From the NCBI RefSeq assembly GCF_900095195.1, contig NZ_LT606950.1, positions 877,207 through 909,206 of the forward strand: 32,000 nucleotides of DNA, given 5' to 3'. The notes beneath the pieces were generated by a model. That model was not told where the DNA came from. It was given only the letters and a program-made list of their open reading frames with translations, and did not search any database. This document shows, in pieces, positions 333-30,617 of the stretch. The translations under genes and the position numbers were made by a program. How positions within the stretch are numbered: position 1 is the first letter of the stretch; each line of letters opens with the position of its first letter. This stretch comes from Polynucleobacter necessarius (GTDB lineage: Bacteria; Pseudomonadota; Gammaproteobacteria; Burkholderiales; Burkholderiaceae).

Positions 333-2983
333 TCAGATTCTACTGGCTTGAGCTTGCGTTAATTCACGGCCACGGAACCAGCCATAAATAACCGGGAGCA
401 CTAAAAGCGTCAGAATGATCGTCGTTACCATGCCACCCACGATCACCAAAGCCAATGGGCGCTGCACCTCAGAACCAATCGAGTGGGACAAGGCGGCAGG
501 CAACAGACCTAAACCCGAGAGCGCAGCCGTCATGAGTGCCGGACGAACACGCAACGATGCGCCCTCTACCATGATGTCTTTCATCTCACCATGCTCGCTA
601 GCTGCAGTCTTATTAATGAAGGAGATCAAAATCACACCGTCCTGAATCGCAATGCCAAAAAGCGATAAAAAAACCAAAGAATGCCGAGACACTGAGGGTT
701 TCACCAGCGAGATGCAAGGCAATGACTCCGCCAATGGCTGCAAATGGCACATTGATCATCACAATAAAAGCGTCGCGGAAATTGCCGAAAGCGCTCACTA
801 GTAACAAGAAGATACCCAACAGCGCTAACGGTACGATCAACATTAATTTCTTTTGTGCCTGCTTCATCTGATTGAACCGGCCATCAAACGTCTTCTCATC
901 TTTGAGTAAGTTTGTCACCGCTGCGCCACCAATGGCATTCGCTACGACCGTCTGAATATCGTTCACATTGATGTTGTAGAGTGATGCACGCTCGCGATCA
1001 ATCTGAATATTCAAGGTGGGTTGACCCAATTCTTTCAAGATGCCTTCATCCACTACGCCACGCACTTTCTTGAGTTGCTCAATGTTGCTCAATCACCTCA
1101 TGCGCTTTTTGATCGAGCACCTCTAAGTCAGTACCGTAAATCTTGACCGAGTTCTCCCCCTTGACTCCAGAGAGTGCTTCATTGACGTTATCTTGGATGC
1201 ACTGAGAGAAGCTATAAGCAATCCTTGGAATCTTATTGAGCTCCGTCTCAAGGTGTGCAATCAGATCTTTCTTAGAAGATTCGCTGGGCATATTCTCGGG
1301 ACTCTTAAGGTATAAACCGTATTCCTGGTCAAACACCCCCGTCGAATCCGTGCGAGATCATTTGGACGTCCAATTTGGGCGGCAACCTTATCAATCTCCG
1401 GTTGCTTCATAAAAGTTTCGCGCAATTGATTGGCAATCTTGACCGAGTAACCGAGATCCACAGTATTTGGTAGCGTGACACGCAACCAAATATTATTCTC
1501 TTCTAAAGTCGGTAAGAACGCTGTTCCCAAGCGGGTCATACTGAGGAGAGTTAAGCCCAACACAAAGACTGCGACTGAGAAAATGGTTAATGGACGATCC
1601 ATCCAGCGTTTGAGGAGTGGCTTGTAGCTATCCAAAATCTTCGTAATAAAGGATGGGGTTTGTGATGCAGGTTCTCACCAAAAACCAATGAGATCATGTC
1701 CGGCAAGAACGTCAGACTGAGTACCATTGCGGCAATCAAAGCAAAGCCCATTGTAAATGCCGTCGGTTTAAAGATGATGCCTTCAACGCCACCCAAAAAG
1801 AACAAGGGCGAGTAAGCCACGATGATGATGCCAGTGGAGTACACCACAAATGCATCTGAATGAACGAAACGCACAATGCTAATGGAATGACAGCGGCCAC
1901 TACCGCAGCAGCCCGAATATTGCCCAAGAAGAAAAACAACACAGCCAACACCAACGAGATTCCAAAGAACAAGGTGTGTTTAACGGTACCAATCATCCAA
2001 GAGCACTTGGCGGTCATAAAACGGTTTTACCGCAACACCCGGCGGCAGAATATGTTTGTTAATGTTATCCACCGTATTGCGAACGCGTGCCAACACTTCG
2101 GCAGCATTCTCACCACGACGCAAGTACACAATGCCTTCTACAGCATCGGGATTGTCATTGAATTGGAACATCCCCAAACGTGGCGCGTTTCCAATTTGCA
2201 CCGTGGCGACATCGCCAATCCGAATAGGCACACCCTTGTTATTGGTAATAACTACTTGCTTAATGTCGTCAATGTTCTTTAGTAAACCAACGCCGCGCAC
2301 CACAAACTGCTTTCTCCGCTTGGTAACAAGCCGCTACCAGTATTGCTGTTGGCATTGGTTAACGCCAGAATTAATTCATTAATGGTGACGCCCTTCGCCT
2401 GCAAGCTTTCTGGGCTCACAATCACTTGATATTGGCGCACCTTACCGCCAAATGATGAGACATCCGCCCCCCCTGGGGTTTGCTTAAGCTCTTTGTATAT
2501 TTCGTAGTTTTGTAAAGTCTTGAGTAAGGTTGAGGTGGCGCACTCTGAGCGCACCTCATAACGTATGATCTCACCAGTAGCATCCGAGTCCGGACTGATG
2601 CTGGATGTGACGCCCGGAGGGAAGCTCACATTTTGAAGGTTTGCGATAAAAATTTGGCGTGCCTTGAAGGGATCCGCTGATTCGTTGAACTTGAGCGTGA
2701 CAACAGACAGACCAAATAGTGACACCGAGCGAAATGCTTGAAGGCCAGGAATACCAGCCAATGCGTTTTCAACAGGGATGGTGACTTGCTGCTCGACCTC
2801 GGTTGTACTTCTACCGGGCCATTGTGAAATTGCTTGAATCGTCAGTGGCGCTACACCAGGATAGGGCTGAATGGGTAACTTGCTCAAACTGAACATGCCC
2901 AGACCCAAGAGCACGATCGACGCAAAAATGACAAGCACGCGCTTCTCAACGACCCCTCGAATAAAGGAGGTGAAAGCGCTCAC
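333..2983 (-). pseudogene. CusA/CzcA-family RND efflux permease, multiply frameshifted with an internal deletion
   Basis: Eight overlapping minus-strand ORF fragments read colinearly as one RND permease: 2279-2983, 1980-2303, 1736-2017, 1587-1874, 1261-1635, 1079-1336, 613-1092 and 333-752. They run from MSAFTSFIRGVVEKRVLV...PIQPYPGVAP...GLSVVTLKF to ...GSEVQRPLALVIVGGMVTTIILTLLVLPVIYGWF. One example frame change lies near 2316-2322 (LLPSGE | QFVVRGVGLLKN). The 2651-nt span is well short of the roughly 1050-aa family norm. An apparent deletion junction lies near 880-886 (DEKTFD | GRFNQMKQAQKKLMLIVP). Confidence 0.9.
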
Positions 2984-2987
2984 TTAG

Positions 2988-4253
2988 TCATCCTGCTTCG
3001 CAAAGCGGTCGTTTAACAATACTGCGCCCTCTGCCAAGACCTGCCACCTGCTCGACCCCTTCAGTGATGGCAAAAGCCTTACTGTTGAGGTCATACCCTT
3101 TAACAGGCACACGGCGGAATGTATCGGGACCTATCTTAATAATCGCAAGGCGGTTCTCACGCACACGCACAATGGCTGATTGCGGAACAACCACAGCATC
3201 TGCTTGACCCGTAGTCAACAAACCCGAGGCATACATGTCGGGGCGCAACAAATCATCGGTGTTATCAACATCCGCACGAATTAACAAAGCGCTGGTTTGT
3301 GGATCAATTGTTGGTGCAATGTAATTAGCGTAGGCAACGAACTCTTTCTCTGGATACGCCTCTAAGCGCCAGGTCATTTTCTGCCTTTGTTTAATCATCC
3401 GAAAGTCTTGTTCAACAACATTGCCTAAGAACCAAAGATGTTTGGGATCGGCCAATGTGGCAATCACGTCACCCGAACTCACAGCAGAACCTGGTTCGAC
3501 ATTCCGTTTCACCACCACGCCTTTTAAGGGCGAGCGCATGATTAAGTTACTGGTTGTCTTACCGGAGGTTTCAATGCTCTTAATATCGCCCTCGCCTGCG
3601 CCAAGATTGCGCATACGATTAGCAGCCGCCTGTTGCGTGATACGCGCATCGCCCAACAAATCACTCATGGTCTTACTGGTCTCGAGTACTTTAGCGGTTT
3701 TCGATGAAAGCAAATACTCTTGCTGTGCGGAGAGAAACTCAGGGCTGTAGAGCTCTACAATAGGTGAACCAATTTCCACTAATGCGCCATCAAACGCGTA
3801 AATGCGCTCCACTCTGCCAGGTGCACGTGCGGACAGCACTTTGGATTTTTCTGCGTTGAAAGCCAAACGCCCAGGGACCTTAATGTTTACTGGAACTTGT
3901 ACTTTTTCGGCAGCTTGAAAAACATAAATTTCCGGATTGAGATTAATACCAGGTAACTTCAATTCCAAGACGCCCGTTTTCTCAACCTTAAGCGCTTTAT
4001 CCGATGCCTCAATTTTCACAGCGCGGTTAACGTTGGTTAAGCGCCCCACCACAATACCGACCGACAAAATCGCAAAGGCAAACGCGGCCAGACGCACTCG
4101 GTGGCGATTTTGCGGTGTCAAATTCCAATACAAGCCAGCTAAACCTGCGGCAGTCGCTTTTGCATGATGTGCACCGTGCTCAGCGCCCTTATGCAAAATC
4201 GGCTTTGCCTTTTCAAACCAGCGTTTTAGAAACGACCAAATTTTGTCTATCAA
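2988..4253 (-). CDS. RND efflux periplasmic adaptor (membrane fusion protein, HlyD/CzcB family), long ORF with a probable C-terminal frameshift
   Basis: A 421-aa ORF with a TTG start preceded by AAGGAG. It has an N-terminal TM segment followed by typical lipoyl/beta-barrel adaptor text (VPGRLAFNAEKSKVLSARAPGRVERIYAFDGALVEIGSPIVELYSPEFLSAQQEYL). The last ~20 residues (AGLGRGRSIVKRPLCEAG) look unnatural. The neighbouring frame reads AEGAVLLNDRFAKQDD and stops at 2986-2984, directly abutting the permease GTG at 2983. Confidence 0.85.
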   Translation of the reverse strand: MIDKIWSFLKRWFEKAKPILHKGAEHGAHHAKATAAGLAGLYWNLTPQNRHRVRLAAFAFAILSVGIVVGRLTNVNRAVKIEASDKALKVEKTGVLELKLPGINLNPEIYVFQAAEKVQVPVNIKVPGRLAFNAEKSKVLSARAPGRVERIYAFDGALVEIGSPIVELYSPEFLSAQQEYLLSSKTAKVLETSKTMSDLLGDARITQQAAANRMRNLGAGEGDIKSIETSGKTTSNLIMRSPLKGVVVKRNVEPGSAVSSGDVIATLADPKHLWFLGNVVEQDFRMIKQRQKMTWRLEAYPEKEFVAYANYIAPTIDPQTSALLIRADVDNTDDLLRPDMYASGLLTTGQADAVVVPQSAIVRVRENRLAIIKIGPDTFRRVPVKGYDLNSKAFAITEGVEQVAGLGRGRSIVKRPLCEAG

Positions 4254-4262
4254 CGCTACTCC

Positions 4263-5520
4263 TTAAAAAGGCTCTTTGCCTGCTGAAACCATTAATACTG
4301 CTTGCGGCTGCAACAAATTACTTTCTGCTTGTGCTAGCGATATCTCTAAGTTACGCAATTGGGTTTGCGCAGTCAATAAATCATTAAATCCCTGACCATT
4401 ATTCGAGTACTGGTCAGACCAACCTTATACGCTGCATCCGCTTGCGGAACTTGGCGCTCTCGCAGAAACGTTGCTGCTGTTTTAGCTTGCTGATACGTCG
4501 CATATGCTGAATTCACGGCAAGCACTACTTGCTGTCGATTGGAAATTTCGTTTGCTTCCGTGCGTTGTTTTATCAGTTTGAGTTGGATCTCATTGTTCCG
4601 TTGTTTTACCAAGGAAAAGTATGGAGTAGAGCAGGCGCAACGCAATCAAGCATCTGCGGAAGTTAGAAGCGAAGGGGCCACGCAGCGTGTAGGAAGAACC
4701 AATCACCTGAAAATCCGGCAAGTATGCTTTCTTGGCTAAGGTCACGCCTTTGCGCGCAGCATCCAACTGCAAGGCAGAACTTTTTAAACTGGGATGACTG
4801 GATTCGGCATAGTCCTCGAGCTCCACCAACGTTGGCACTGCACTCATGGAGCGCGGATATCCCCTTTCAGAATCAGTTTTTCGCGCGAGTGACGACCAAT
4901 CAGGGTATTAATATTTTTAATGCCCACTTCAGGCTGACGCTCTAAGTTAAATTGATCGGCTTCTGCTGCGCTTTGCGCTACTTGCGCATTGAGGTATTCC
5001 ACATAGGCAGCAGCGTTGTTGGCGTAGCGGGCTTTGGCTACGTTCTTGATCATCTCTAAACGCACTACGGACTCTTTGAGTACCTGCGACTGTTTTTGCG
5101 TTGCCAGCGTATTGTAGTAGAGAGTCGAGAGCTGAGCGCCTAACTGTAAGTAGGTAGACTTCGAGTTTGCTAATAATGCTTCTGCGTTGGTATCGGCAAT
5201 ATCGGCCGCTAAGCTTTTCTTGCCTGGGAACTGAAACGGCTGAGCAAAATTGACGCAGATCCATTTCAACTGGACCCGATGGCGCACTCTTAACAAAATT
5301 TTTGGGCGTATTCGCTTTAGTAACGGGCGCAAATAATTCGGCTGCTTTGCTGGGCTTATCTTGCGCACTCAGTTGAGCACCAATCGATGGCGGCGCAGCT
5401 AACAATGCATCACTGGTTTGCACGGTCACACTGGCGGGAGGCGTGTTGTTCGCAGCAGACTAGGCGAGCACATTAAAAGCAAGGGAAGCGAAGACCAAAT
5501 GGCTAACCCCTTTCAAGATG
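4263..5520 (-). pseudogene. Outer-membrane efflux factor (TolC/CzcC family), frameshifted with an in-frame stop
   Basis: Minus-strand fragments 4947-5429, 4844-5368, 4590-4847 and 4373-4645, plus a tail ending DLLTAQTQLRNLEISLAQAESNLLQPQAVLMVSAGKEPF* (TAA at 4265-4263), carry TolC-family repeat text (LGAQLSTLYYNTLATQKQSQVLKESVVRLEMIKNVAKARYANNAAAYVEYLNAQV). The signal-peptide region reads ...VFASLAFNVLA*SAANN, with an in-frame TAG. The 5' boundary is approximate. Confidence 0.8.
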
Positions 5521-10127: not shown

Positions 10128-10229
10128 GGATGGGCCTCCCCGCATGGTGGGTTGGATAACCTGGTCAGGTCGGGAACGAAGCAGCCAAACCCAATTTCTG
10201 CCAGTGCCGGGGGTTTGGCTCATCCACCC
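10127..10229 (+). ncRNA. ffs: Signal recognition particle RNA (4.5S-type)
   Basis: The plus strand carries CTGGTCAGGTCGGGAACGAAGCAGCCAAACC. This matches the conserved domain IV of bacterial SRP RNA (E. coli GGUCAGGUCCGGAAGGAAGCAGCC), with a GGAA tetraloop closed by G-C. A downstream GCCGGGG and terminal GGTGG/CCACC pairing close the helix. The ends are approximate. Confidence 0.8.
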
Positions 10230-11875: not shown

Positions 11876-12202
11876 GATTTCTCCTGTCTTTGTCTAAATT
11901 TGCAGCAGGGACAAATACAGGCGGTTATGAAAGCAACAGGTTCAGATTAGGGGTGGTGAGGCTCGTGGAGTGAGCTAGGGAATTTCAAAGGTCGCGCCAA
12001 ACATTAAATAATTTCAAACAAATAGCAGTTGCTAGAAAAATATTTATTCAGTTCACTATTAATGCATGTTTTATCGAATGAAGGAACTAATTTCATTTGC
12101 AAATTGAATAGATTAAATACGTGATTAAGCATCAAAAATTACCAAGAATATTTTATTAAATAGGTTAAGATTGATATTCATCAAATTAATATTTTCATTT
12201 TT

Positions 12203-13135
12203 ATGAAATTAGAAGAATTTTTAACAAAAAATACAACGGGAGAAAGTTAGCCTACTCCAACCAAGCCTTTATAAAAAATGTCTTTTACCCCACATGGGGT
12301 GAGTATGGTTTAAATTTAATTCATCCCGAAAAAGAATTTTTATCCTGCACAGAAGAAAGATATTTCATTGACTTTATAGTGCAATCTGAGTATCGATCCT
12401 ATTTAATTGAGATAGATGACTATTCCTCACACGCAAGTAGTCCAGACAGATTTGCCAAGCACAATCGTAAAATTAGCGACATTCAAATGTCACTAGACTC
12501 CGGAGAATTTAAATGTGGCTTGATTGAGGGGGAAAAATTTACCCTAGCGTAATTAATTTGACTCTAAATGAAATACAAGAAAACGCTCAGTCTTATGTCA
12601 CGAGGCTTTTTAAAATCTTTCTTGCCGATAAGTATTTAAATATTTACTTCTCAAGAAGATACGGTGTCGACATAATACCAACGTTGCCACAAAAATTACG
12701 CTTGAGAAAATCAGGGCCTCTAGGAATGCTGGCAGCAAAAAAGGATTGATTTCGTTAACGACAGCCCTGGGGAAAACATTTATCTCAATATTTCATGCAA
12801 AAGAATATGGAGGAAACGTTTTATTCCTAGCCCATATAGTGGATATATTAAATCAAGCAGAAAATTCATTCTTATTAGCCTGGCCTGAAATAAAAAATAA
12901 TATAGGGTACGTAACCGGAGAAGAAAAAGTATTTAATAAACAAGTAACGCTCGCATCTATACAAGCGCTATCACGTGTTCATACTTTGGAGCTATTTGAT
13001 CCTAAATATTTTGACACCATCAAAATCGATGAAACTCATCACGCAACTTCCCCAACCTACTCAAAGGTAATTAACTACTTTAAGCCTAAGCTCCCGTTGG
13101 GGGTTACAGGAACACACGAGAGGCACGATGGTAAA
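12203..13135 (+). pseudogene. Relic of an AT-rich, probably acquired gene: PD-(D/E)XK-like nuclease domain fused to an SF2 DExH helicase, frameshifted and 3'-truncated
   Basis: ATG 12203 gives MKLEEFLTKNTTGES*. The next frame (12253-12552) reads ...EERYFIDFIVQSEYRSYLIEIDDYSSHASSPDRFAKHNRK, a Vsr/DUF559-like D...ExD...H...R pattern. ORFs 12558-12749 and 12746 onward then carry helicase motif I (TALGKT), motif II (KIDETHH) and motif III (LGVTGTHER). Homology stops at about 13135. The region is strongly AT-rich compared with its flanks. Confidence 0.65.
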
Positions 13136-14072
13136 CAAGCGCACATTGAATTGCGTGAGGTTGAGCTTCCAGTGCCAGGCCCTGATCAAATACTGGTTCG
13201 GGTAAAAGCCGCCAGTCTTAATCGTGGTGAATTCATCCTCGGTCATGGACTGCACAAATCGGGTTCAGCAAAACCCATCGGCATGGAAGCCTCTGGAGAG
13301 GCTGTAGCTTGTGGCAATGCGTAACCACGTTTCAGGTGGGCGATCGTGTCATGGGCCGTTGCCCAGGGGGATTTCAGAGTATGCATTGATGACTGAGCGT
13401 GAAACGATGCATATCCCAACCCCCTTAAATTGGGAACAGGCCGCTGCTATGCCATTAACTTCTGCCGTGGTATTCGACATGCTGGTTTCTCAAGGTCGCA
13501 TTAAATCAGGGGAATGGGTTTTGATCACTGGAGTGACCTTTGGGGTCGGTGTCACTGCGCTCTCAATGGCCAAAGCCCTTGGAGCAAAAGTGATCGGCAC
13601 CTCTGGATCTCAAGACAAATTAGATCAGTTAAAAATAATGGCCTTGATGTCGGTATTTGCACTCGCCAACCCAATTTTTATGATGCCATTGGCCACAGAT
13701 AACAAAGGCGTCGACATTGTGATTAATACGGTAGGGGGCACTGTTTTTGCTGAATGTATTCGGTCAATGGCATTCGAGGGTCGCTTAGCTACCGTCGGAT
13801 ATGTCGATGGGGTGCTCAAAGCGGAGATTGATATCGAGGCTTTGCATTCCAAGCGTTTAACTTTATTTGGCGTTTCGAATAAGTTGCGCACTCAACAACA
13901 ACGATCTGGAGCGATACCAGCGTTTAAAGCGCAAATCTTACCGCTAGTTGAAGCGGGTCGTATCGTACCGATGATTTACAAAACCTTTCCGTTCGAGCAA
14001 TTGCTCGAAGCCAAAGCAGCTGTGGATGCAAATTAGCATTTGGGGAAAATTATTTTAGCTGGAACGCCATAA
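13136..14072 (+). pseudogene. NADPH:quinone oxidoreductase / zinc-type alcohol dehydrogenase family, 5'-truncated with frameshifts and a nonsense codon
   Basis: It starts mid-protein as AHIELREVELPVPGPDQILVRVKAASLNRGEF. Frame breaks around 13320-13385 recover VTTFQVGDRVMGRCPGGF, then SEYALMTERETMHIP. An out-and-back frame excursion at about 13625-13700 has its true text LKNNGLDVGICTRQPNFYDAI in ORF 13514-13702. TAG at 14034-14036 is followed in frame by HLGKIILAGTP* (stop at 14070-14072). Confidence 0.85.
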
Positions 14073-22820: not shown

Positions 22821-23147
22821 ATGAATGCCGGCATTAAATATGTAACTGACGCCTCTTTCGAACAAGACGTCCTCAAATCCGATAAACCTGTCCTGCTCGA
22901 TTTTTGGGCGGAATGGTGTGGTCCTTGCAAAATGATTGGCCCCATCCTAGAAGAGCTTTCTGGTGAGTACAGCAACAAATTGCAAATCGCCAAAATGAAT
23001 GTGGATGAGAACCAAGGCGTGCCAACCCAGTTCAATATTCGTGGCATTCCAACCCTGATCCTATTCAAAAACGGCACCGTAGCTGCTCAAAAAGTAGGCG
23101 CTTTGGCTAAATCGCAGTTGACCGCATTTATCGATAGTCATCTGTAA
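22821..23147 (+). CDS. trxA: Thioredoxin
   Basis: A 108-aa ORF with the active site [14 protein letters not shown] lies upstream of the ATG. Confidence 0.97.
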
Positions 23148-23190: not shown

Positions 23191-23428
23191 CCCTCGAGTT
23201 TTAGCACTATCCGCATTGATCCCAACCGTTTTTAGTGTAGCATTTCGATTAACAGCAGTTCAGCGTTTCACGGTATTTATCTAGAACGCGCCTTTCCAGC
23301 AATTTATTCCCCCTTCTTTTAGCAGATTGCAAAATTCCTGTTTTTCCATATCTGCGTGATCTTCATCAGCGCGGCGATAACCCAAAACTCAACTTCATTC
23401 TTTATTTTTATCAACACCCGAGAACCAC

Positions 23429-23529
23429 ATGCAATTAACTGAACTCAAAGGCCTACACGTATCCGCCCTGCTTGAAATGGCAGCTGGCTTGGAGATGAAA
23501 ACACTCAACGGATGCGCAAATAAGAACTC
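23429..23529 (+). other. rho: Disrupted 5' end of rho (1-nt deletion plus an in-frame TAA)
   Basis: ATG 23429 reads MQLTELKGLHVSALLEMAAGLE, the Rho N-terminal helix. After GAG 23492-23494 the homologous text (ENTQRMRK) continues in another frame. That frame hits TAA at 23521-23523, where Rho proteins have Gln (RMRKQ), just before ELMFAILKK. Confidence 0.85.
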
Positions 23530-24690
23530 ATGTTTGCGATTCTGAAAAAACGCGCCAAGGCTGGTGAAACCGTTTATGGCGATGGCACATTGGAAGTATT
23601 GCCAGATGGCTTTGGTTTCTTGCGCTCTCCTGAAACCTCCTACATGGCATCCCCCGATGACATTTACATCTCCCCTGCACAGATTCGCCGTTTCAATTTA
23701 CATACTGGCGATAGCGTTGAAGGTGAAGTACGTACCCCGAAGGATGGTGAGCGTTACTTTGCGTTAGTCAAAGTCGACAAGATCAACGGTTTGGCTCCGG
23801 AGGCCCTCAAGAACCGCATCATGTTCGAAAACTTAACGCCTTTGCACCCTAACCGCGTCATTGGTTTGGAGCGCGACATTAAGGCGGAAGAAAACTTAAC
23901 GGGTCGCATTATCGACATGATCTCTCCCATTGGTTACGGCCAACGCGGTTTGATTGTGGCCCCACCCAAGTCTGGTAAGACCGTGATGATGCAGCACATT
24001 GCTCACGCGATTTCGGCGAACAATCCCGATGCGATTTTGATTGTTTTGCTCATTGATGAGCGCCCAGAAGAAGTTACTGAAATGCAGCGCTCGGTGCGCG
24101 GTGAAGTTGTTGCCTCAACCTTCGATGAGCCTGCAGTACGTCACGTGCAAGTTGCTGAGATGGTGATTGAAAAAGCTAAGCGCTTAGTAGAGATGGGCAA
24201 AGACGTCATCATCTTGCTCGACTCGATTACTCGTCTGGCGCGCGCATACAACACAGTAGTACCTTCTTCCGGAAAGGTACTTTCAGGTGGTGTGGATGCC
24301 AATGCGCTGCAACGTCCAAAACGTTTCTTTGGCGCAGCCCGTAACATAGAAGAAGGTGGCTCCTTAACAATCATCGCTACTGCCCTGATTGAAACGGGTA
24401 GCCGTATGGATGACCTCATCTATGAGGAATTCAAAGGTACCGGCAATATGGAAGTCCATTTGGAGCGTCGTCTGGCTGAACATCGCGTCTATCCTTCAAT
24501 TAACCTCAACAAATCTGGTACCCGCCGTGAGGAATTACTGGTTAAACCAGAAAACCTCCAGAAGATCTGGGTATTGCGGAAATTGCTCGCCGATATGGAC
24601 GATATCGAGGCGATGAACTTCATCGTGGATAAGCTCAAATCGACCAAAAACAATGGTGAATTCTTCGACCTGATGCGTCGCGGAGGCTAA
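23530..24690 (+). CDS. rho: Transcription termination factor Rho, uninterrupted ORF lacking the first ~33 codons
   Basis: 386 uninterrupted codons. They carry the CSD-like RNA-binding region (GFGFLRSP...[16 protein letters not shown]), Walker [22 protein letters not shown], and strong colinearity with E. coli Rho through the C-terminus. Confidence 0.9.
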
Positions 24691-24856: not shown

Positions 24857-25204
24857 ATGAAACCTGGCATTCACCCTGAATATCGTGAAATCGTCTTTTT
24901 GGACGTTTCTAATAATTTCAGTTTCAAGACTCGCTCCACTATGGCCACGAAAGAGACCATCAAGTGGGAAGACGGCAATGAATATCCATTAGCCAAGATC
25001 GAGACTTCTTCTGAATCACACCCTTTCTACACTGGTACCCAAAAAATCATGGATACCGCTGGTCGTGTTGAGAAATTCCGTCAGAAATTCGGTAGCAAAG
25101 CGGTTGCGAAAGCTTCTGGCGATGGCGCTGCAAGAACTGCTGAGAAAAAAGCGGCGGCTGCAGAAGCCAAAGCTGCTGAAAAAGCAACCAAGAAGAAGGC
25201 TTAA
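24857..25204 (+). CDS. rpmE2: 50S ribosomal protein L31 type B with a Lys/Ala-rich C-terminal extension
   Basis: [14 protein letters not shown]...[29 protein letters not shown], with no CxxC zinc motif, hence type B. A tail of about 30 residues follows: [35 protein letters not shown]. Confidence 0.92.
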
Positions 25205-28955: not shown

Positions 28956-29415
28956 TTAATACTGTGGACGGCGCTGTGGTGCGTTACTGGTTGGCGGCGT
29001 AGCGGATTGTGCTTGCCATCCTGTTGGGCGCTCCTGCGCATACGGAAAATATTTACCACTGGCTTCGCAGTAATACCAAACGGTCGGTTGTGGTTGCGCT
29101 GCTAACACCATCGGTTGTGGTGGTGGCGCATAAGTCACCACTGGCGGTGGAGCGTAAACAACTGGGGGAGCATGGTAACCAGGATAGGGGCCGTAATAGC
29201 CACTATATGCCCAGCCACCTCGCCAACCGGGTTCCCCAACCATGACCCCATCCGGGTCCAGCATAGGGGCCATAAGCTGTTGGTCGCCAACCACCGTATC
29301 TGCCGCCCACGGACACATTCCAAGCAACATTACCAGCATTGGCTACCACTGGAGCTAACGTGAGTAGCGCTGCAACAATGATTCCTAATATGCTGATTTG
29401 ATTGAGTTGTTTCAT
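28956..29415 (-). pseudogene. Small secreted Gly/Pro/Tyr/Trp-rich protein with a C-terminal WYYC...YFPY motif, single frameshift
   Basis: GAGGGG sits upstream of ATG 29415-29413. The frame reads MKQLNQISILGIIVAALLTLAPVVANA (signal peptide), then ...GPYAGPGWGHGWG. It must shift near 29232-29236 (a GGGG run) to continue as EPGWRGGWAYSGYYGPYPGYHAPP...TVWYYCEASGKYFPYAQERPTGWQAQSATPP. Confidence 0.55.
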
Positions 29416-29559: not shown

Positions 29560-30575
29560 CTACTGATCCAATTTTGCACTCGATTGCACAACCACACGCG
29601 ACCATTTAGCCGACTCATGGGTGATCAGCTTTGCTAGATCTTTAGAGCTGCCCGGATTGGGCTCCAATCCCCCTGCCAATAAGCGACTTCTGATCTCAGG
29701 CTGATTTAAGGTACTGCGCGTGAGTTGATTTAAGCGTTTTTGAATATGGGGCGGTAAGTTTGCTGGTGCCATTAACGAAAACCAAGACACCGCTTCAAAT
29801 CCAGGCAGACCCTGTTCGGCCAATGTGGGGATTTCAGAGGCGGCGGGCAATCGTTTGAGCGTAGTTACCCCTAACGCTTGTACCTCACCCGCTTTAATCA
29901 GCAGCAGTGAAGAAGATAGGTTATCAAAGAGCATTGAAATACGACCGCTTACCAAATCGGGCAATGATTGTACCCTACCCTTATATGGAATATGCCGTAT
30001 TTGAATACCGGCCATCTCTTTGAATAATTCACCAGACATATGCAATGAAGTGCCAACGCCCGAAGAACCAAATGTCAATTGATTGGGCTTGGCTTTGGCT
30101 AACTCAATCAACTCATGTATGTTGGTAACACCCAATTGTTTATTCACAATCAGAACATTCGGCGTGCTCGCCAAAAAACTAATGGGCGTGAAATCCTCAA
30201 TCGGATTAAATGACATCTTTTCATAGATGGCGCCATTAATCGCATGAATACCTACCGTACCAGTCAAGAGCATAAACCACCATCAGGGTCACTCTTGGCA
30301 ACGAGCTCAGCGCCAATATTACCGCCATATCCCGGTTTATTTTCAACCAGGACTGGCATACCTAAGGCCTGTTGCCAATTCTCCGCCAATACGCAAGCCA
30401 ATATGTCAGGGGCTCCGCCAGGAGTAAACGTCACAATAATGCGAATGGCTTGCTTGGGCCACGTTGCATTTTTCGAAGCGTTGAGATTGGAAACTGTCTG
30501 GGCCTGAACCACTAGGGTGATCATCGCCAACAGAATCGATACGCAGAGGTTACGTGCTACCTTCAACAATTGCAT
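29560..30575 (-). pseudogene. Bug-family (TctC-like) periplasmic binding protein, frameshifted
   Basis: The ORF at 30264-30575 (signal peptide, IRIIVTFTPGGAPDILACVLAENWQQALGMPVLVENKPGYGGNIGAELVAKSDPDG) and the ORF at 29560-30273 (LLTGTVGIHAINGAIYEKMSFNPIEDFTPISFLASTPNVLIVNK...) are colinear halves of one protein. They are split at about 30270. Confidence 0.85.
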
Positions 30576-30617
30576 GACCCACAGCCCAAATGGATGGACT
30601 AGCTTAAGAATAAGAAA

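Follow-up and report, generated by a model that had tools for sequence, protein, structure and literature searches.

The rho gene studied here lies within a 32,000-nt stretch of Polynucleobacter necessarius DNA (contig NZ_LT606950.1, positions 877,207 to 909,206 of the forward strand), the whole of which is referred to below as the window. The gene order around it is addA/addB-like, trxA, rho, rpmE, a gene for a 572-aa membrane protein, and MatE. The same order is found in the 'Polynucleobacter necessarius' symbiont chromosome LT606948 (L082), in which rho is intact, and in many lake metagenome contigs. The features of the locus, in order of their first position, are as follows.

22821..23147, + strand: trxA (thioredoxin), intact, upstream neighbour of rho; 96% identical to the orthologue in L086, with synteny in L081-L083
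23163..23190, + strand: hairpin followed by a T-run, resembling an intrinsic terminator, after trxA; found by a terminator scan, position kept in relatives
23216..23243, + strand: putative rho promoter, proposed from a conserved block in an alignment of the trxA-rho spacer of 10 lineages
23244..23428, + strand: rho 5' leader, conserved block by block in relatives
23429..23494, + strand: codons 1-22 of rho, still in the native frame; weak Shine-Dalgarno (SD) sequence, initiation region unstructured
23429..23545, + strand: leader ORF of 38 codons that results from the frameshift (MQLT...GLE plus 16 residues), with its TGA stop at 23543-23545
23495..23496, + strand: lesion 1, the remnant AT of codon 23 (Ile), which is ATT or ATC in relatives
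23509..23544, + strand: predicted mRNA hairpin over codons 27-39, minimum free energy (MFE) -14.2 kcal/mol
23521..23523, + strand: lesion 2, TAA in place of the CAA codon of Gln32; the C>T change leaves U.G where the hairpin had C-G
23530..24690, + strand: 386-codon ORF for Rho residues 35-420, with OB-fold and RecA-type ATPase (Walker A APPKSGKT)
24857..25204, + strand: rpmE (L31), intact, downstream neighbour of rho; from the ORF list and relatives

The putative promoter consists of a -35 element TTGATC (23216-23221), a 16-nt spacer, and a -10 element TAGCAT (23238-23243). The corresponding block in relatives reads TTGTCA and TAGTAT, so that the window version is weaker by one match, and with 8 of 12 consensus matches it was not called by a consensus promoter scan. 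Additional bases are present in the window immediately 5' of the putative -35 element. Within the leader, a hairpin at approximately 23352-23378 shows compensatory changes in other lineages; an Rfam search of the leader and the 5' coding region returned no family.

Translation from the native start codon (ATG 23429) proceeds through 22 in-frame codons (23429-23494), reading MQLTELKGLHVSALLEMAAGLE. At codon 23, one T has been deleted (23495/23496) and the frame shifts, leaving GAGAT-GAA in the window vs. GAG ATT/ATC GAA in the closest Polynucleobacter relatives. The frame that continues from 23497 encodes the conserved ENTQRMRK and then runs into the TAA of codon 32 (CAA>TAA). From Met35 onward (ATG 23530), 386 codons are uninterrupted. 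When the protein was repaired conceptually, it aligned with E. coli Rho structures over residues 1-420 with zero gaps, so E. coli numbering applies directly to the window Rho; Met35 corresponds to Ile35 of the E. coli protein. Full-length Rho cannot be produced from the window locus, unless the sequence is wrong, because the reading frame is lost at codon 23 and, even if restored, runs into a stop codon. The original prediction had described the same frames, the TAA at 23521-23523, and the 386-codon ORF, and all of these sequence statements hold on re-reading. It had also spoken of two independent lesions in the first 31 codons. There are indeed two; they lie within the first 32 codons rather than 31, and they may not be independent, as the deletion and the nonsense codon are only 27 nt apart and could represent a single clustered mutational event.

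The nearest genomes among the matches listed were from Polynucleobacter (at least two genomes of this genus). The comparison drew on 55 full-length Polynucleobacter rho genes and on a metagenome scan in which the 572-aa neighbour, a faster-evolving gene, served as the seed and which yielded 80 loci. An intact 1263-nt rho was present in all 55 full-length relatives, the nearest relatives of the window Rho were all canonical 420-aa proteins, and each of the 50 distinct Polynucleobacter rho sequences has a Gln codon, CAA or CAG, at position 32. Such a pattern exceeds chance, and the two lesions stand out as genuine departures from a state that is invariant elsewhere. This alignment with close relatives, which the original prediction had proposed as a check, defines the differences from the intact genes as the loss of one T and a CAA>TAA change: relative to 55 intact orthologues, the gene carries two disabling lesions, a 1-nt deletion and a nonsense codon, as expected of a pseudogene. 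The closest of the recovered relatives in the 80-locus scan reached 87% nucleotide identity in rho.

The surroundings of the gene confirm the supposition, made from the sequence at the outset, that the genome is eroding. An RND (AcrB/CusA-type) transporter gene lies in at least six pieces (333-2983), the gene for its OEP outer-membrane partner is broken up (4844-5429), the VWA, ResIII, and ADH genes are truncated, and the TctC gene and a 151-aa gene have acquired a +2 and a +1 insertion, respectively, both outside homopolymers. These fragments of accessory genes stand beside approximately 16 kb of uninterrupted housekeeping ORFs, comprising the addA-like, addB-like, dnaX, recR, ybaB, trxA, rpmE, 572-aa, and MatE genes. 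The window thus has the features of an eroding endosymbiont genome of the Polynucleobacter type.

This context bears on whether the damage to rho exists in the organism, the original prediction having listed sequence error among its options. Under this explanation the organism has an intact rho, and sequencing or assembly has introduced both the deletion and the stop codon. The deletion, C94T, and G102C (all private to the window) and the rare T100C do fall inside 35 nt of an unusually conserved region, while the other 1161 nt hold only six private states, and locally poor sequence quality could give this picture. Nevertheless, sequencing error is unlikely because accessory genes of the same window are shattered while its ~16 kb of housekeeping ORFs contain no frameshift or stop. 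In addition, the deletion sits in a TT dinucleotide rather than a long homopolymer, the nonsense codon arose by substitution, an intact rho would require both calls to be wrong, and the other broken genes carry multiple non-homopolymer lesions that are typical of real decay. Taken together, these observations leave error as an improbable account of the two lesions. Programmed recoding, in the form of ribosomal frameshifting, transcriptional slippage, or stop codon read-through, would accept the sequence and still yield full-length Rho. Endosymbionts rescue some frameshifts in long poly-A tracts via transcriptional slippage, and the deletion in rho creates the mildly A-rich sequence GAG AUG AAA ACA. 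However, homopolymers of seven or more bases are absent at the deletion, no stimulatory structure is suitably placed, and correcting the frame at codon 23 leads only to the TAA of codon 32, which means that two separate recoding events would be required. Recoding thus fails to restore full-length Rho because of the TAA in the corrected frame; ribosomal frameshifting and transcriptional slippage were both rejected on this ground and for want of a long homopolymer, and recoding as a whole is barely credible here, far less so than error.

The domain content of the remaining ORF indicates what kind of protein it could specify. The 386-aa sequence matches the Pfam families PF07497 (Rho_RNA_bind, 110.8 bits) and PF00006 (ATPase, 97 bits) and has no Pfam match to PF07498 (Rho_N), to which the repaired N-terminus scores 59.7 bits over residues 5-47. 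It exceeds the cut-offs of the canonical Rho families TIGR00767 (661 bits vs. 509; profile positions 35-414) and NF006886 (658.6 bits vs. 315; profile positions 35 to ~414), and with 446.4 bits vs. a cut-off of 628 it falls below membership of the short-form family NF041509 ('paralog_Rho2'). To judge from these profile matches, the locus specifies a Rho of the canonical Type 1 that fresh lesions have cut short. The ORF keeps residues 35-47, which are the last 13 of the N-terminal helix bundle, but of the three N-terminal helices a product begun at Met35 would be missing two and a half, and with them the RMRK motif; R(M/L)RK is a conserved block of the Rho N-terminal domain (PMC11347177).

Two kinds of truncated Rho offer a guide to the consequences. 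RNA binding is reported to be lost when residues 1-27 are removed from E. coli Rho (Modrak and Richardson, 1994, cited in PMC11347177). This was an engineered fragment studied in vitro, from which most of the same helices had been removed; the window allele differs in that 34 residues would be lost in a full-length hexameric context. Natural Rho proteins of Type 4, or group B (PMC11347177), and of NF041509 ('Rho, short form') likewise combine the OB-fold and ATPase without the helix bundle. There are 58 natural Type 4 proteins without the N-terminal domain, and in Fusobacterium nucleatum the sole Rho is of Type 4 and its gene is essential (PMC11347177). These natural short forms are old, separately evolving families, whereas the window ORF is canonical. 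Because the 1-27 deletion loses RNA binding while a natural Type 4 protein is essential in F. nucleatum, it is conceivable by analogy that Rho minus residues 1-34 would be weak and partly functional, though not normal.

Any such protein would have to be initiated at ATG 23530, and this site appears poor. The SD check agrees with the original prediction, which had seen no obvious SD sequence: none is correctly placed at ATG 23530. At the native start, ATG 23429, the SD sequence is weak (-3.0 kcal/mol) and the initiation region is without structure (MFE 0.0). Within the predicted hairpin over codons 27-39, positions 23515-23522 form the inner stem with 23531-23538, which makes the A of ATG 23530 the last base of the loop and places its U and G in pairs. 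The hairpin is predicted in 50 relatives, at -9 to -16 kcal/mol, and its stability exceeds that of synonymous recodings of this segment, with a mean z of -2.0 in 48 relatives vs. ~0 in control segments. On this structural model, free initiation at ATG 23530 is unlikely, and reinitiation would be the more realistic way to a protein.

Restarts of translation downstream of an early nonsense or frameshift mutation are classically known from lacI and T4 rIIB. As in the window, a premature stop lies near an in-frame AUG, and the outcome can be an N-terminally shortened protein. In the window, ribosomes that start at ATG 23429 would leave the frame at codon 23 and stop at the TGA of the 38-codon leader ORF (23543-23545), a peptide that had no match in a Pfam search. 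Their passage may melt the hairpin that hides AUG 23530, and a fraction of the terminating ribosomes may then reinitiate 13 nt upstream at this AUG, in which case the only protein remaining to the locus would be Rho minus residues 1-34. The TGA lies 13 nt beyond ATG 23530 and the two ORFs overlap by 16 nt. [quoted passage not shown] Known coupling systems are efficient within this range (PMC6728339, PMC10666635), unlike the window arrangement, with its 16-nt overlap and no SD sequence. The yield of Met35 Rho by reinitiation should consequently be low, since the overlap lies outside the distances at which coupled ORF pairs operate efficiently. The original prediction had named a truncated Rho made from ATG 23530 as one of three explanations that it left side by side; this is possible, yet the start site is worse than was said, combining the missing SD sequence with the hairpin and the overlap. 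We argue that any Met35 Rho would be scarce and impaired in primary-site RNA binding because of the missing SD sequence, the 16-nt overlap, and the loss of most of the N-terminal helices and RMRK. A three-codon ORF from ATG 23512 would end 6 nt before ATG 23530, and there is no sign of initiation at this ATG. A window-specific change of the Leu34 codon (TTG>CTC) was considered as an improvement of the restart site and rejected, as hairpin energy and SD pairing are unaltered; four relatives have CTN at this codon.

The age of the lesions was approached through the substitutions in the gene body. The window rho sits on a long terminal branch because no relative exceeds 87% nucleotide identity. 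By parsimony, this branch carries 70 synonymous and three non-synonymous changes in the 386 codons, and the same count in lineages with an intact rho gave 61-79 and 0-4, respectively. The ORF contains ~890 non-synonymous and ~268 synonymous sites, such that, if a fraction f of the branch had evolved neutrally, ~230 x f non-synonymous changes would be added to a background of ~1.4. Three observed changes vs. ~1.4 from background would limit neutral drift of the gene body to less than ~3% of the terminal branch, and we infer from these counts that the rho lesions are evolutionarily recent. Pairwise dN/dS for the window rho is ~0.01, a value that mostly reflects the long time preceding the lesions; for this reason, it was rejected as evidence of maintenance, as were counts of private states. 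The private substitutions of the 386-codon ORF are S179P and V209I, both of which are the E. coli states and speak against decay, and R352H, which counts on the side of decay and is found only in the window, all 125 other sequences examined having K or R at this position. An alignment of 130 Rho sequences has 173 columns with 99% conservation or more, and the window ORF departs from none of them.

The position of the lesions carries some information as well. Both lie 5' of Met35, the only nearby in-frame AUG. The chance of this is ~0.007 if the lesions arose independently and were uniformly placed, and the chance that the second falls upstream of Met35, given the first, is ~0.08; should they be a single clustered event, the positional argument falls to the latter figure. 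Their placement fits what selection still guarding the gene body would produce. A clean 386-codon ORF is nonetheless no proof of maintenance, because a very young pseudogene looks identical. Recent inactivation, the first explanation offered in the original prediction, is compatible with all of the data, but neither the clean ORF nor branch counts equal to those of intact genes single out a pseudogene.

Our best reading, with a probability of roughly 0.5, takes the window rho for a pseudogene of very recent origin, or at most for a leaky hypomorph headed towards loss, rather than for a stably maintained new form of Rho. Its main competitor is tentatively held and somewhat less probable: a functional short Rho lacking residues 1-34 would be maintained by leader-coupled translation, perhaps boosted by autoderepression of rho, and the 5' lesions would be tolerated. 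Such maintenance would account for the occurrence of both lesions before Met35 and of none in the next 386 codons, for the unblemished conserved columns, and for a non-synonymous to synonymous ratio on the terminal branch like that of intact genes. It also has precedents in the essential natural Type 4 Rho of F. nucleatum (PMC11347177) and in the NCBIfam 'Rho short form' family, it is consistent with a 5'-only lesion in a lake metagenome sequence (L167, described below), where a true null would not be expected, and no other loss of Rho is known from Pseudomonadota with a genome of this size. On the other hand, an intact ORF is equally expected of a pseudogene younger than ~3% of the branch, the restart site is poor, the NF041509 score (446 bits vs. 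628) is that of a non-member, and the E. coli 1-27 deletion reportedly abolishes RNA binding. Moreover, the positional argument is worth only ~0.08 if the lesions are one clustered event. The stronger proposition, that a canonical Rho has freshly been turned into a Rho without its N-terminal domain which is made by restart, sustains the organism, and is under selection, is doubtful and a shade less probable again. If it were true, 5'-confined lesions, those of the window together with that of L167, would be a recurrent natural means of lowering Rho without losing it, and the locus would illustrate a route by which Type 4 short Rho factors arise.

The second 5' lesion was found in the lake metagenome scaffold L167, in which a 50-nt frameshifting deletion removes sequence from codons 3-19 and the gene body is otherwise open. 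The L167 gene is 99.6% identical over the ORF to the intact allele L168 from the same sampling series, and its Rho has I79L and Y80D within the primary RNA-binding site. The deletion is independent of the window lesions, and it lends some support to the idea that 5' damage is tolerated; it may also be an assembly artefact. With the window and L167 taken together, all three lesions among ~57 related rho genes sit in the first 32 codons. Other candidates for a short Rho were set aside. P0131 (386 aa) was rejected because a contig end cuts the gene, and P0117 (407 aa) because its N-terminus is normal. Cupriavidus entries of 392, 404, and 410 aa are probably the result of start-site calls, since 420-aa calls coexist in the same genus.

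Rho is essential in most Pseudomonadota, and its near-universal retention in the phylum weighs against an outright loss here. Among 2730 genomes surveyed in 2024, none of the 284 Rho-less species belonged to this phylum (PMC11347177). P. necessarius endosymbiont genomes are rich in pseudogenes (PMC5018217), and the pseudogenes described for obligate P. necessarius endosymbionts of Euplotes (Boscaro et al., 2013, as reported in PMC5018217) resemble the window in synteny, in sequence family, and in having frameshifts and stops beside intact housekeeping genes. The difference is that the gene broken here is for a core transcription factor. Pseudogenisation in Polynucleobacter symbionts is thus already known, and rho as its target is the unusual part. 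No paper on rho of Polynucleobacter symbionts, or on a pseudogenised rho in endosymbionts, came up in a literature search. For now, the locus is best taken as an example of ordinary genome erosion and not of a new mechanism.

A parallel is the extreme case of Hodgkinia, whose tiny genome has no rho and which shows transcriptional read-through (PMC10287537). The window organism would likewise be an intracellular symbiont without full-length Rho, in which read-through and antisense transcription are expected; unlike Hodgkinia, it has a complete rho gene body and a genome at an early stage of erosion. The suggestion in the original prediction that damage to rho would alter genome-wide termination and the silencing of pseudogenes is reasonable as a putative effect. 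An early-stage endosymbiont just past the loss of full-length Rho would be a natural experiment, raising the questions of how dispensable Rho-dependent termination is after horizontal gene transfer and prophages have disappeared, whether pseudogene transcription is unleashed by Rho loss, and whether the N-terminal helix bundle is required in vivo. Portiera and Sulcia differ from the window organism in having kept rho in much smaller symbiont genomes, and Rho is retained in symbionts with genomes five times smaller.

A second rho gene with an apparent lesion at its 5′ end was observed in one of a pair of closely related lake-metagenome scaffolds from the same sampling series, L167 (positions 2630-2700) and L168 (895-1010), whose rho genes are 99.6% identical. 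While L168 encodes a normal Rho of 420 amino acids, codons 3-19 of the L167 gene are removed by a single frameshifting deletion of 50 nt, such that the gene reads ATG CAA CTC TCT TGA. The gene body of L167 is open from Met29 (392 codons), and its product carries the substitutions I79L and Y80D, both within the primary RNA-binding site. The trxA-rho spacer of the L167/L168 lineage is ~850 nt long, as compared to ~280 nt in the window. The L167 deletion is either an independent rho lesion confined to the 5′ end of the gene or else an assembly artefact.

The following RNA and promoter features were identified in and upstream of rho in the window:

23200-23243, putative rho promoter, with a -35 region unlike that of every relative
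23352-23378, hairpin in the rho 5′ leader, CTGCGTGATCTTCATCAGCGCGG
23509-23544, conserved mRNA hairpin inside the rho coding region (codons 27-39)

The hairpin within the coding region is more stable than synonymous recodings of the same codons (mean z of -2.0 over 48 Polynucleobacter sequences), and third-position diversity is ~0.17 in codons 1-30 versus ~0.38 across the remainder of the gene. Together, this stability and the low third-position diversity suggest that the 5′ end of rho has a role at the level of RNA, which might be autoregulation. One stem pair of this hairpin is weakened by the nonsense mutation of the window. The leader hairpin exhibits compensatory changes in other lineages, being CTGTCTGAT...ATCAGGACAG in locus L001 and in L082 (LT606948, the chromosome of a ‘P. 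necessarius’ symbiont), and a search of Rfam revealed no family matching the rho leader of the window. In the putative promoter, the -35 element is TTGATC, with ~8 extra bases upstream, as opposed to TTGTCA in relatives, and the -10 element is TAGCAT rather than TAGTAT; this promoter may be slightly weakened. Within the rho gene body, the only change that looks unusual is R352H (24482-24484), which is private to the window. Position 352 is occupied by Arg in 50 Polynucleobacter sequences, and of 75 further Rho sequences that were compared, 74 have Lys or Arg there and one has a gap.

Elsewhere in the window, a heavy-metal/RND efflux operon (333-5429, minus strand) is in decay, and two further genes are frameshifted downstream of rho:

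333-2983, minus, AcrB/CusA-type pump, at least six ORF fragments
2988-4253, minus, membrane-fusion protein gene (HlyD_D23), still open
4844-5429, minus, outer-membrane factor, fragmented
28956-29415, minus, Gly/Trp-rich gene of 151 amino acids, +1 insertion near 29232
29560-30578, minus, TctC-family gene, +2 insertion near 30277

The LT606948 symbiont likewise carries a split TctC gene, and because the breaks lie at different positions, they indicate parallel decay. GC content falls sharply to 0.32 at 12001-13324, from ~0.48 elsewhere, and a truncated ResIII (restriction/helicase) ORF (12746-13324) adjoins this drop; the segment may be left over from foreign DNA. Next to dnaX, the window encodes a bacterial small SRP RNA (10129-10227, plus strand; RF00169, 77 bits), which is intact.
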